From a virus (Duplodnaviria; Heunggongvirae; Uroviricota; Caudoviricetes): 7,413 nt of DNA. This document shows positions 2,468 to 7,413 of the stretch, in pieces. Both the position numbers and the translations under genes were made by a program. The notes under the pieces were generated by a model that did not search any database, was not told the DNA's origin, and saw only the letters and a program-made list of their open reading frames with translations. The stretch lies in IMG/VR virus record IMGVR_UViG_2654587569_000001; one strand, written 5' to 3'. How positions within the stretch are numbered: position 1 is the first letter of the stretch; every line of letters starts with the position of its first letter.

Positions 2468-5400
2468 ATGGGTAAAGGCAGCAGTAAGGGGCATACCCCG
2501 CGCGAAGCGAAGGACAACCTGAAGTCCACGCAGTTGCTGAGTGTGATTGATGCCATCAGCGAAGGGCCGATTGAAGGTCCGGTGGATGGCTTAAAAAGCG
2601 TGCTGCTGAACAGTACGCCGGTGCTGGACAGTGAGGGGAATACCAACATCTCCGGTGTCACGGTGGTGTTCCGGGCAGGTGAGCAGGAGCAGACTCCGCC
2701 GGAGGGGTTTGAATCCTCCGGCTCCGAGACGGTGCTGGGTACGGAAGTGAAATATGACACGCCGATCACCCGCACCATCACGTCGGCAAACATCGACCGT
2801 CTGCGCTTTACCTTCGGTGTACAGGCACTGGTGGAAACCACCTCAAAGGGAGACAGGAATCCGTCGGAAGTTCGCCTGCTGGTTCAGATACAGCGTAACG
2901 GTGGCTGGGTGACGGAAAAAGACATCACCATTAAGGGCAAAACCACCTCGCAGTATCTGGCCTCGGTGGTGGTGGATAACCTGCCGCCGCGCCCGTTTAA
3001 TATCCGGATGCGCAGGATGACGCCGGACAGCACCACAGACCAGCTGCAGAACAAAACGCTCTGGTCGTCATACACCGAAATCATCGATGTGAAACAGTGC
3101 TACCCGAACACGGCACTGGTCGGCGTGCAGGTGGACTCGGAGCAGTTCGGCAGCCAGCAGGTGAGCCGTAATTATCATCTGCGCGGGCGCATTCTGCAGG
3201 TGCCGTCGAACTATAACCCGCAGACGCGACAATACAGCGGTATCTGGGACGGAACGTTTAAACCAGCATACAGCAACAACATGGCCTGGTGTCTGTGGGA
3301 TATGCTGACCCACCCGCGCTACGGCATGGGGAAACGTCTTGGTGCGGCGGATGTGGATAAATGGGCGCTGTATGTCATCGGCCAGAATTGCGACCAGTCA
3401 GTGCCGGACGGCTTTGGCGGCACGGAGCCGCGCATCACCTGTAATGCGTACCTGACCACACAGCGCAAGGCGTGGGATGTGCTCAGTGATTTCTGCTCGG
3501 CGATGCGCTGTATGCCGGTATGGAACGGGCAGACGCTGACGTTCGTGCAGGACCGACCATCAGATAAGGTGTGGACCTATAACCGCAGTAATGTGGTGAT
3601 GCCGGATGATGGCGCGCCGTTCCGCTACAGCTTCAGCGCCCTGAAGGACCGCCATAATGCCGTTGAGGTGAACTGGATTGACCCGGATAACGGCTGGGAG
3701 ACGGCGACAGAGCTTGTTGAAGATACGCAGGCCATTGCCCGTTACGGTCGTAATGTCACGAAGATGGATGCCTTTGGCTGTACCAGCCGGGGGCAGGCAC
3801 ACCGCGCCGGGCTGTGGCTGATTAAAACAGAACTGCTGGAAACGCAGACCGTGGACTTCAGCGTCGGCGCAGAAGGGCTTCGCCATGTACCGGGCGATGT
3901 TATTGAAATCTGCGATGATGACTATGCCGGTATCAGCACCGGTGGTCGCGTGCTGGCGGTGAACAGCCAGACCCGGACGCTGACGCTCGACCGTGAAATC
4001 ACGCTGCCATCCTCCGGCACCACGCTGATAAGCCTGGTTGACGGGCAGGGTAATCCGGTGAGCGTGGAGGTCCAGTCCGTCACCGACGGCGTGAAGGTGA
4101 AAGTGAGCCGTGTTCCTGACGGCGTTGCTGAATACAGCGTGTGGGGGCTGAAGTTGCCGACGCTGCGCCAGCGCCTGTTCCGCTGCGTGAGTATCCGTGA
4201 GAACGACGACGGCACGTATGCCATCACTGCCGTGCAGCATGTACCGGAAAAAGAAGCCATCGTGGATAACGGGGCGCACTTTGACGGTGACCAGAGCAGC
4301 ACGGTGAATGGTGTCACGCCGCCAGCAGTGCAGCACCTGACCGCCGAAGTCACCGCAGACAGCGGGGAATATCAGGTGCTGGCGCGCTGGGACACGCCGA
4401 AGGTGGTGAAGGGCGTGAGCTTCCTTCTTCGCCTGACCGTGGCAGCGGATGACGGCAGTGAGCGGCTGGTCAGCACGGCCCGGACGACGGAAACCACATA
4501 CCGCTTCAGGCAACTGGCGCTGGGGCGTTACACGCTGACAGTCCGGGCGGTAAATGCGTGGGGGCAGCAGGGCGATCCGGCGTCGGTATCGTTCCGGATT
4601 GCCGCACCGGCAGCGCCTGTCACTATTGAACTGATACCGGGGTATTTTCAGATAACAGCGGTCCCGAAACTGGCTGTATATGACCCGACGGTGCAGTTTG
4701 AGTTCTGGTTCTCGGAAAAGCGGATTGCGGATATCAGGCAGGTTGAAACCACAGCCCGCTATCTTGGCACGGCGCTGTACTGGATAGCTGCCAGTATCAA
4801 TATCAAGCCGGACCATGATTATTATTTTTACATCCGCAGTGTGAACACCGTTGGCAAATCGGCATTTGTGGAGGCTGTTGGCCAGCCGAGTGATGATGCA
4901 TCCGGCTATCTGGATTTTTTCAAAGGAGAGATAGGGAAAACCCATCTGGCTCAGGAGTTGTGGACGCAGATTGATAACGGTCAGCTTGCGCCTGACCTGG
5001 CTGAAATCAGGACGTCCATTACGGATGTCAGCAATGAAATCACACAGACCGTCAATAAGAAACTGGAAGACCAGAGTGCAGCGATCCAGCAGATACAGAA
5101 GGTTCAGGTTGATACAAATAATAACCTGAACAGCATGTGGGCTGTGAAGCTGCAGCAGATGCAGGACGGACGCCTTTATATCGCGGGTATTGGTGCCGGT
5201 ATTGAAAACACCCCTGACGGCATGCAGAGTCAGGTGCTGCTGGCGGCAGACAGGATTGCGATGATTAATCCTGCGAATGGCAACACAAAGCCGATGTTTG
5301 TTGGGCAGGGCGATCAGATATACATGAATGAAGTGTTCCTGAAATATCTGACGGCTCCCACCATTACCAGCGGCGGTAATCCTCCGGCATTTTCCCTGAC

Positions 5401-5950
5401 ACCGGACGGGCGACTGACGGCGAAAAATGCGGATATCAGTGGCAGTGTGAATGCGAACTCCGGGACGCTCAATAACGTCACGATAAATGAGAACTGTCAG
5501 ATTAAGGGGAAACTGTCCGCCAACCAGATTGAAGGCGATATTGTCAAAACGGTCAGCAAGTCTTTCCCCCGCACGAGCACTTATGCCAGCGGCACCATTA
5601 CGGTCACGATTAGTGATGATCAGAAGTTTGACCGACAGGTCATGATCCCGGCTCTGCTGTTTAAAGGAAGCAGGAAGGAAAATTATGGCAGTAATAATCA
5701 ACAGTCTTATGTTTATTCTGTATGCCGTTTGCAGGTAACGAAAAACGGGACAGAAATTTTTAATCAGTCAACAACGGATGCTCCGGCGGTTTTTTCTTCC
5801 GTTATTGATATGCCTGCGGGGCAGGGAACGTTGACGTTAAAGTTTACGGTCTCTTCTTCAATGGTCAATAACTGGACACCGACAACCAGTATCAGCGATT
5901 TGCTTGTTGTGGTGATGAAGAAATCCACCGCAGGTATCACGATTAGCTGA
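2468..5950 (+). CDS. J: Host specificity protein J / central tail fibre (tip attachment protein), 1160 aa
   Basis: Complete 3483-nt ORF with GGAG/GAGG upstream of ATG 2468. The N-terminus [54 protein letters not shown] matches lambda gpJ as I recall it. An internal fibronectin-III-like segment is present (about 4290..4570, ...[27 protein letters not shown]). It is longer than lambda J (1132 aa, from memory) and the last ~300 nt are conspicuously AT-rich. Confidence 0.93.
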
Positions 5951-6017
5951 ATTTTATAACCCAGATACGGGCGCCAGAAATGACGCCTTTTTTATTGCAG
6001 AAAAGCGAGAGGTAATT

Positions 6018-6617
6018 ATGCGTAAAGTTTGTGCAGCAATTTTGTCCGCAGCCATCTGTCTGGCCGTATCCGGCGCGCCTGCATGGGCGTCTGAACAGCA
6101 GGCCACGCTGAGCGCGGGGTATCTTCATGCCCGGACGAACGCTCCCGGCAGCGATAATCTTAACGGGATTAACGTGAAATACCGTTATGAATTTACGGAC
6201 ACGCTGGGGCTGGTGACGTCATTCAGCTATGCAAAAGACAAAAATCACCAAAAAACCCATTACAGCGATACCCGCTGGCATGAAGATTCAGTGCGTAACC
6301 GCTGGTTCAGCGTGATGGCGGGGCCGTCTGTGCGCGTGAATGAATGGTTCAGCGCGTATGCGATGGCGGGTATGGCTTACAGCCGTGTTTCGACTTTCTC
6401 CGGAGATTATATCCGCGTAACTGACAACAAGGGGAAAAAGCACGATGTGCTGACCGGAAGTGATGACGGTCGCCACAGCAACACGTCTCTGGCGTGGGGG
6501 GCTGGCGTGCAGTTTAACCCGACCGAATCCGTGGCCATTGATGTCGCTTATGAAGGCTCCGGCAGTGGTGACTGGCGCACTGACGGTTTCATCGTGGGTG
6601 TCGGTTATAAGTTCTGA
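6018..6617 (+). CDS. lom: Outer membrane protein Lom (Ail/Lom/PagC/OmpX family beta-barrel), 199 aa; lysogenic-conversion moron
   Basis: Complete ORF with RBS GAGAGG 6007..6012 and ATG 6018. N-terminal Sec signal peptide [24 protein letters not shown] with AxA cleavage site. Motifs [22 protein letters not shown] and the C-terminus [23 protein letters not shown] (terminal aromatic residue typical of OMP barrels) match lambda Lom as I recall it. Located between J and stf exactly as in lambda. Confidence 0.9.
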
Positions 6618-6643
6618 TTAGCCAGGTAACACAGTGTTATGAC

Positions 6644-6670
6644 AGCCCGCCGGTTCAGGCGGGCTTTTTT
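6644..6670 (+). terminator. Rho-independent terminator downstream of lom
   Basis: 8-bp GC-rich stem AGCCCGCC (6644..6651) / GGCGGGCT (6658..6665) with 6-nt loop GGTTCA, followed immediately by a run of six T (6665..6670). It lies 27 nt after the lom stop and 12 nt before the stf start. Confidence 0.75.
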
Positions 6671-6681
6671 GTGGGGTGAAT

Positions 6682-7413
6682 ATGGCAGTAAAGATTTCAG
6701 GTGTACTGAAAGACGGCACAGGAAAACCGGTAGAGAACTGCACCATTCAACTGAAAGCCAGACGGACCAGCAGCACGGTGGTGGTGAACACGGTGGCCTC
6801 TGAAAATCCGGATGAAGCCGGTCGTTACAGCATGGACGTTGAGTACGGGCAGTACAGCGTCATTCTGTTGGTGGAAGGATTCCCGCCATCACATGCCGGG
6901 ACCATCACCGTGTATGAAGATTCTCAACCCGGTACGCTGAATGATTTTCTCGGTGCCATGTCGGAGGATGACGTCCGGCCGGAGGCACTGCGCCGTTTTG
7001 AACAAATGGTGGAAGAGGCAGCGCGTCACGCCGAGGAGGCGAAGAAGAATGCCGGAGAGGCAGAGACGTCAGCGAGGAATGCCGGCATATCAGCCAGTCA
7101 GGCAGAAAAGAGCGCTGCAAATGCTGACACTTCAGCAGGAGAGGCATCGGAGTCAGCCCGGCAGGCGGCAGAAAGTGCAGCCTCAGCAAAGCAGTCAGAG
7201 GAGGCGTCCTCGTCCTCGGCCTCTGAGGCCGCTCAAAAAGCCAGTGAGTCATCACAAAGTGCAGCAGAAGCTGAATTGTCAAGAAAGACGGCAGAAAGTG
7301 CAGCCGGTAATGCAGCCAGGGATGCAACGACCGCAGCAGAAAAAGCCCGGGAGTCAGCAGAAAGCGCACAGTCAGCGGAACAAAGCAGGATAGCGGCGGA
7401 AGACGCCGTAAAC
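6682..7413 (+). CDS. stf: Side tail fibre protein Stf, N-terminal 244 codons (3' part outside window)
   Basis: ATG at 6682; frame 1 is open through the window end (732 nt, exactly 244 codons, no stop). The N-terminus MAVKISGVLKDGTGKPVENCTIQLKARRTSSTVVVNTVASENPDEAGRYSMDVEYGQYSVILLVEGFPPSHAGTITVYEDSQPGTLNDFL matches the start of lambda Stf (orf-401) as I recall it, and is followed by an Ala/Ser/Glu-rich repetitive shaft region. It is absent from the ORF track only because it has no stop codon within the window. Confidence 0.85.
   Translation, partial: MAVKISGVLKDGTGKPVENCTIQLKARRTSSTVVVNTVASENPDEAGRYSMDVEYGQYSVILLVEGFPPSHAGTITVYEDSQPGTLNDFLGAMSEDDVRPEALRRFEQMVEEAARHAEEAKKNAGEAETSARNAGISASQAEKSAANADTSAGEASESARQAAESAASAKQSEEASSSSASEAAQKASESSQSAAEAELSRKTAESAAGNAARDATTAAEKARESAESAQSAEQSRIAAEDAVN

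Follow-up and report, generated by a model that had tools for sequence, protein, structure and literature searches.

A mosaic tail-tip gene J with an exchanged receptor-binding cassette in a lambdoid phage or prophage

Several proteins are described that resemble the tip attachment protein analysed here and for which the outer-membrane receptor is known. They include: lambda gpJ, which binds LamB and for which structures are available (PDB 8xcj, 8xck and 8iyk; PMC11101478); J of phage 21, whose native receptor is LamB, where the substitution I1025T alone adds the use of OmpC and where the use of OmpF was gained with about four substitutions (PMC11336670); that of phage 434, which uses OmpC (PMC3509688); and A8, an engineered protein in which the C-terminus of a natural Escherichia coli prophage gpJ takes over from lambda gpJ after aa 964 (Brodel et al. 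2024, PMC11338833). With A8, which uses OmpC without LamB, DNA reaches 95% of ΔlamB ΔompC cells complemented with OmpC, against ~2% for wild-type lambda gpJ, and A8 and 1A2 gpJ accept different OmpC variants (PMC11338833); of these two, our comparison covers A8. A 2026 preprint on receptor prediction covers GpJ of the Drexlerviridae type and excludes the lambda C-terminal domain. Here we compare these proteins with the product of gene J in a stretch of 7,413 nucleotides of viral DNA (IMG/VR record IMGVR_UViG_2654587569_000001; the whole stretch is referred to as the window), which carries the tail-tip operon of an E. coli-type lambdoid element, either a phage or a prophage. The gene (2468-5950, plus strand; identified from its open reading frame (ORF), translation and Pfam domains) encodes a tip attachment protein, or central tail fibre, of 1160 aa. 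An earlier note on this DNA, made from the sequence alone, had correctly given this length against the 1132 aa of lambda J and had proposed a recombinational junction inside the gene, with an exchanged receptor-binding domain (RBD) at its end. We find such a junction at ~5473 and the same cassette on three J backbones, and the synonymous divergence (dS) from lambda is 1.9 in the RBD vs 0.14 in the body of the gene.

Mosaic structure of J and the cassette junction

J of the window was aligned with the J genes of lambda, 434, 21, cdtI and Escherichia phage PhiR70_1, and the names of its segments follow the domain names of Ge and Wang (PMC11101478). Judged from these alignments, at least four segments make up the mosaic of J on the plus strand: i) a conserved lambda-like body with the hub domains and two FNIII/Ig domains (2468-4900, delimited by identity and dS); ii) a variable module of the phage 21/PhiR70_1/cdtI type, which comprises the alpha-helical shaft and the upper central straight fibre, i.e. 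the upper beta-prism (4900-5345, aa ~815-950, delimited likewise); iii) a conserved island in the lower central straight fibre, with the residues NANSGTL, which forms the crossover region (5346-5473, aa ~951-1002; DNA identity 85-98% to all alleles); and iv) the RBD cassette, a rare AT-rich allele of the Ig-like C-terminal receptor-binding domain (5474-5950, aa 1003-1160; delimited by identity, an AlphaFold2 (AF2) model and Pfam). The body (aa 1-800) is 88-100% identical in protein and 86-99% in DNA to all five aligned genes, and its DNA is about 98% identical to lambda over most of its length, which bears out its earlier description as a conserved lambda-like body. Relative to lambda, 95-100% of the protein residues are identical in most of aa 1-800 (88-92% in 681-800), 12-70% in 815-950, 98% in 961-1000 and 32-56% from 1001 onwards, and the corresponding dS values are 0.14 (body), 2.3 (shaft module), 0.33 (island) and 1.9 (RBD). 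Within 4900-5345 the DNA identity is 8-63% to lambda and 434 vs 93-100% to cdtI, PhiR70_1 and phage 21, and the protein identity over aa ~815-950 is 12-70% vs 92-100% for the same two groups. The C-terminus had been called a different module: the identity to lambda indeed collapses to 43% in the last ~160 aa, but the two proteins are collinear and homologous throughout, and the module is a divergent allele of the same fold.

The C-terminal module had also been described as longer than that of lambda, which does not hold: the RBD counts 158 aa in both proteins (aa 1003-1160 in the window, aa 975-1132 in lambda), and the 28 additional residues are an insertion in the shaft (4976-5062, aa 837-865, plus strand), opposite which lambda and 434 are gapped (window aa 836-866). 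The RBD as the seat of the extra length was therefore rejected on the basis of the alignment, of the phmmer match to the PDB sequence of lambda gpJ, which aligns window residues 801-836 and then 866-1159 and so leaves the insertion out, and of the J lengths in prophages that carry the same RBD. The window shaft is thus ~28-29 residues longer than the lambda shaft. In a single-sequence AF2 model of low confidence (predicted local distance difference test, pLDDT, of 57 overall and 58-91 in the region concerned) a putative helix of aa 840-899 spans the insertion.

The DNA of the RBD (5440-5950) occurs at ≥95% identity in 12 of the 5426 complete E. coli genomes, with the next tier at 83%, and it has no match above 81% in any of 50,697 phage records. 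When a 55-nt piece of the RBD was looked up in species-representative genomes, no exact match was found. Three of the 12 prophages that carry the allele were compared. They hold the same cassette (99-100% DNA identity) on J proteins of different length: 1160 aa in STECUZB006, 1233 aa in 2015C-4136CT1 and 1132 aa in Rb-23. The J of Rb-23 has the short shaft of the lambda type and that of 2015C-4136CT1 has 73 further residues in the shaft, inserted at window aa 836. The helical shaft is in other words length-polymorphic independently of the RBD, and on these sequence comparisons the shaft module assorts independently of the RBD. From 5474 to the stop codon the window differs from the three prophages by 1 (STECUZB006), 2 (2015C-4136CT1) and 6 (Rb-23) mismatches per 477 nt. 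In the preceding stretch (5261-5473) the window shows ~52 mismatches with each of STECUZB006 and 2015C-4136CT1. The junction is sharp, since ~52 mismatches on the 5' side of 5473/5474 stand against 1-2 on its 3' side: the identity to prophages that share the RBD jumps from ~75% to >99% at this position, which is the 3' edge of the conserved island. The other end of the cassette can be seen in the comparison with cdtI, where the DNA identity is 97-100% up to 5319, 42-72% over ~5500-5953 and 92-98% right after the stop codon. Both traces that an exchange should leave, i.e. an unequal synonymous divergence of body and RBD and the presence of the cassette on other J backbones, were thus found. In addition, the comparison of the RBD with that of PhiR70_1, which has the nearest phage allele, gives a dS of 1.2 with a ratio of non-synonymous to synonymous divergence (dN/dS) of 0.08. 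These values identify the allele, as far as divergence estimates go, as an old one that is under purifying selection, and not as the product of recent mutation and divergence in place. We propose that homologous recombination exchanged the cassette, through a crossover within the conserved island and a second one at the stop codon or immediately beyond it. We consider the mosaic structure, the junction and the independent assortment of the cassette, together with the family and fold membership described below, to be established with near certainty (probability about 0.95).

A third, small mosaic patch was observed in the beta-prism (5261-5422). Here the identity between the window and STECUZB006 or 2015C-4136CT1 drops to ~63-85%, while their flanking sequences match it (shaft 95-100%, RBD ~100%); cdtI and PhiR70_1 are 85-100% identical to the window over the same patch.

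The last ~300 nt of J are AT-rich, as the earlier note had observed: the GC content is 0.432 at 5650-5950 vs 0.593 at 2468-4717 (z = -4.4 relative to the full set of 301-nt windows that lie outside 4700-5950, and -5.7 on a binomial basis), and the 301-nt window with the lowest GC content of the whole 7.4 kb begins at 5658. The DNA quoted in that note lies at about 5663-5720, and the quoted peptides are aa 1002-1026 and the C-terminus of J. Between the J body and the AT-rich end the GC content at third codon positions (GC3) drops from 0.72 to 0.46 and that at first positions (GC1) from 0.60 to 0.40, while residues with AT-rich codons rise from 0.20 to 0.31. The RBD cassette as a whole (5474-5950) has a GC content of 0.451. 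Its protein is also rich in Ser, Thr, Asn and Gly, as had been noted (a share of 0.38 in aa 1001-1160 vs 0.28 in the body). However, the AT-rich shift does not mark the junction of the swap. GC falls in steps along J and the largest step (0.65 to 0.49) lies near nt 4700; at 4718-4867 (second Ig/FNIII domain) the GC content dips to 0.47-0.49 in all six J alleles compared, lambda included, the part of the body from 4718 onwards has 0.49-0.51 in all alleles, and the dip sits in sequence that is 87-95% identical to lambda. Because the dip near 4700 is common to lambda, 434, 21, cdtI and PhiR70_1, it is, by this sequence comparison, a conserved property of the gene that is unrelated to the mosaic junctions, and the GC shift was rejected as a junction marker. 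Only the final step is allele-specific (RBD 0.41-0.48 here vs 0.50-0.56 in lambda).

Fold of the cassette and its probable receptor

The cassette encodes a known Ig-like gpJ C-terminal domain and no new protein family. It matches the Pfam family Ig_GpJ_C (PF12421), the C-terminal receptor binding domain of tip attachment protein J, with an E-value of 1.6e-34 and 119 bits against a cut-off of 26.2. The best phmmer match among PDB sequences is A8 gpJ 713 (9wca and 9wcb, E 8e-155), and lambda gpJ is found with an E-value of 1e-103. An AF2 monomer model of aa 961-1160 (pLDDT 82) is all-beta with nine strands, and Foldseek matches of the modelled RBD were obtained with 9wca (E 1e-24), 9wcb (E 2e-22) and 8xck (E 6e-20), at identities of 88% and 87% for 9wca and 9wcb and of 53-54% for lambda 8xck and 8xcj. 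A homology search recovered a graded series of E. coli alleles that runs from 99% to below 50% identity, in which the 99% cluster counts 44 member sequences. The suggestion of a beta-sandwich or lectin-like tip can accordingly be retained for its first half, in view of the Ig_GpJ_C match and of the all-beta model that resembles 9wca/9wcb and 8xck/8xcj, but not for its second, as the relatives bind porins. The lectin-like candidate was rejected: the nearest structures are porin-binding gpJ RBDs, and matches to lectins or carbohydrate-binding modules have E-values of ~1e-3 or weaker at 8-15% identity.

The porin that is recognized by the cassette is probably OmpC rather than LamB (we would put the probability at about 0.6), a prediction by analogy that leans on A8. 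The RBD of A8 in 9wca (the closed state) and 9wcb (the open A8 gpJ 713 with OmpC from EDL933, three OmpC chains) is 100% identical to the natural RBD of PhiR70_1 (J aa 1001-1160), so that this isolated phage is itself predicted to use OmpC; a literature search found no paper that describes 9wca/9wcb. The window RBD is 86% identical to that of A8/PhiR70_1 over aa 1001-1160. Across the three RBDs of the window, A8 and phage 21, 45 positions vary. The window shares its residue with A8 at 23 of them and with phage 21 at 3, and has a private residue at the other 19; of the 26 positions at which it goes with one of the two and not the other, 23 place it with A8.

Several points weigh against OmpC. 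The RBD of phage 21 J falls in the same clade (74% identical to the window and 82% to A8) and this phage natively uses LamB, and as one substitution adds OmpC and a few more add OmpF in that phage, a handful of residues can be enough to decide the receptor within the clade. Of the 158 RBD residues, 22 are not the same in the window as in A8, and 19 of these substitutions are private, being found in neither A8 nor phage 21. They are concentrated at aa 1062-1074, 1082-1095, 1106-1107 and 1132-1133, within or beside loops that would face the receptor. The strand topology of the model suggests that the four distal loops (L1-L4) are those at 1032-1041, 1074-1078, 1103-1106 and 1133-1144; it is also here that the family alignment has its indels and its most variable columns, and 7-9 of the 22 differences with A8 fall in or beside them. 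The putative orientation of these loops rests on that topology and not on coordinates.

That a different module implies a different receptor, as had been argued in the earlier note, is therefore only partly upheld: a receptor other than LamB is plausible, given that A8 (86%) uses OmpC without LamB, but the module by itself does not imply it, given that phage 21 (74%) uses LamB. The cassette could indeed bind LamB, as the RBDs of phage 21 and lambda do, in which case the swap would have changed the allele and not the receptor. This is the better of the alternatives, yet we think it unlikely. Phage 21 J, of the same length and free of indels with respect to the window, has LamB as its native and only receptor, and the window retains I1025 and V1026, two positions at which mutation gives phage 21 access to OmpC; however, A8/PhiR70_1 retains the same two residues while A8 uses OmpC without LamB, and both the overall identity and the discriminating positions place the window nearer to A8.

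Somewhat less probable again is that the 19 private substitutions confer a specificity unlike that of A8 and phage 21, directed at another porin (OmpF, PhoE, OmpN-like) or at a distinct subset of OmpC variants. The private changes do cluster in hypervariable columns of the family around the putative loops L2-L4, the accepted OmpC variants already differ between A8 and 1A2, evolved phage 21 reaches OmpF with about four substitutions, and the allele is rare (in 12 of 5426 E. coli genomes at ≥95% identity, and at ≤81% in the 50,697 phage records). Against such a shift stand the loop lengths, which are the same as in A8, and the low dN/dS of the RBD with respect to A8/PhiR70_1 (0.08), which gives no sign of strong diversifying selection overall. 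Finally, the view that no exchange took place and that host-range selection instead sped up point mutation in the resident C-terminus, with a low GC content that follows from the amino-acid composition, is very improbable, for although host-range point mutations are known to be frequent in the C-terminus of J and the shifts in GC1 and in residues with AT-rich codons make part of the AT-richness compositional, the synonymous divergence of the RBD is ~8-14 times that of the body, the boundary is sharp in two prophages, an identical cassette sits on three backbones and the identity to cdtI recovers at once past the stop codon.

The triggering mechanism that we infer is carried over from the solved structures of lambda and A8 gpJ. 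As in those two proteins, the RBD would trimerise at the tip of the central fibre, and the trimer would insert its four distal loops into the extracellular mouth of the trimeric porin and then open at the bottom. The opening would pass up the beta-prism to the helical shaft, which would flip, whereupon the FNIII strings would release and the tail tip would open.

The surrounding tail-tip operon

The operon order is M-L-K-I-J, followed by lom and stf, and is collinear with the annotations of lambda, 434, 21 and cdtI. The tail-tip operon genes upstream of J are M (75-404), L (414-1112), K (between L and I in the ORF map) and I (1760-2407). J itself has the full lambda-type series of domains, i.e. 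six Pfam families above cut-off in the same order as in lambda: FNIII-A_GpJ (aa 86-207), Phage-tail_3 (aa 330-498), Ig_J (aa 611-714), Ig_J_second (aa 716-818), Phage_Tail_Tip (aa 872-1000) and Ig_GpJ_C (aa 1037-1160). Downstream, on the plus strand, lie lom, encoding an Ail/Lom outer-membrane protein (6018-6617; Pfam Ail_Lom, E 2.9e-122), and the 5' part of stf, encoding the side tail fibre (6682-7413), whose frame is open from the ATG at 6682 to the end of the window, where it runs off. In homologous prophage loci the gene at the stf position is annotated as 'prophage tail fiber N-terminal domain'. In the phage collection, 271 records match the window and 118 cover at least 80% of it. The phage closest to the whole window is cdtI (95.6% identity over 94%), and the part that it leaves uncovered is the 3' end of J. 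None of the complete E. coli genomes exceeds 94.2% identity over 4600-7413.

Some further features were observed along the way. A hairpin that resembles an intrinsic terminator (6644-6665; 8 pairs, 7 of them G-C, followed by a T run) is located between lom and stf, at the position of a terminator that is annotated in phage 434. Within J an antisense ORF of 713 codons with a TTG start runs on the minus strand (3560-5701), with its high-coordinate end (5701) near the GC3 collapse in the RBD; it is probably a by-product of the high GC3 in the J body. In the prophage of E. coli STECUZB006, which has the same RBD on a J of 1160 aa, cdtA and cdtB of cytolethal distending toxin type I are found just downstream of stf (locus 7170-8511); the window ends before that position.

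Comparison with described lambdoid J proteins

The swap of the J tip is an ordinary exchange of a phage host-range module and represents no new system or mechanism; what is new here is a rare allele of a known RBD family, within a lambdoid mode of evolution that was already known. The locus is nevertheless a clean natural example of lambdoid host-range change, in which an RBD cassette of 477 nt between a conserved crossover island and the stop codon moves independently of a second, length-variable shaft module. It adds one allele to a clade where the use of LamB, OmpC and OmpF lies few substitutions apart. The rare allele could have a receptor spectrum distinct from that of A8 (OmpC) and phage 21 (LamB), for instance another porin or a subset of OmpC variants that is missed by A8 and 1A2; we regard this as doubtful, but if true, the allele would offer lambda-based delivery vectors a retargeting cassette ready-made by nature, and it would be a natural intermediate on the LamB/OmpC/OmpF specificity landscape that is studied by experimental evolution.

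Compared with lambda, the window has the same gene order (M-L-K-I-J-lom-stf), domain architecture, RBD fold and RBD length; the RBD is 43% identical, with compensating loop indels at aa ~1036, ~1075 and ~1134, and in the shaft module, where lambda is 28 aa shorter, the identity is 12-70%. With cdtI the window shares the body, the shaft module, lom and stf. The RBD of the 434/cdtI type is of the same fold family and of a different allele class: it is 45% identical, and the loop lengths differ (6 extra residues at aa 1036 and a 3-residue deletion at ~1136), so that the window matches this type neither in sequence nor in loop length. Phage 21 J has the same total length as the window (1160 aa), the same long-shaft module (92-100% DNA identity) and the same residues I1025/V1026, and the window agrees with A8 rather than with phage 21 at the discriminating positions.

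The closest described relative of the cassette is thus the RBD of A8 and PhiR70_1, which has the same length and the same loop lengths, without indels. In DNA the PhiR70_1 allele is only 61-82% identical to the window at 5602-5895 and 88% in the last block, with a dS of 1.2, and A8 has the short lambda shaft whereas the window has the shaft of +28 aa. A paper on Chi sites in lambdoid phages contains no receptor data and no mention of the PhiR phages. Position 964 of lambda gpJ, where A8 was fused, corresponds to window aa 992 and lies within the conserved crossover island, and the engineered fusion point thus falls in the same conserved stretch as the natural junction of the window (aa ~1002). 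As the natural junction coincides with the point that engineers chose to retarget lambda particles, the allele could be grafted directly in the way that was used for A8.

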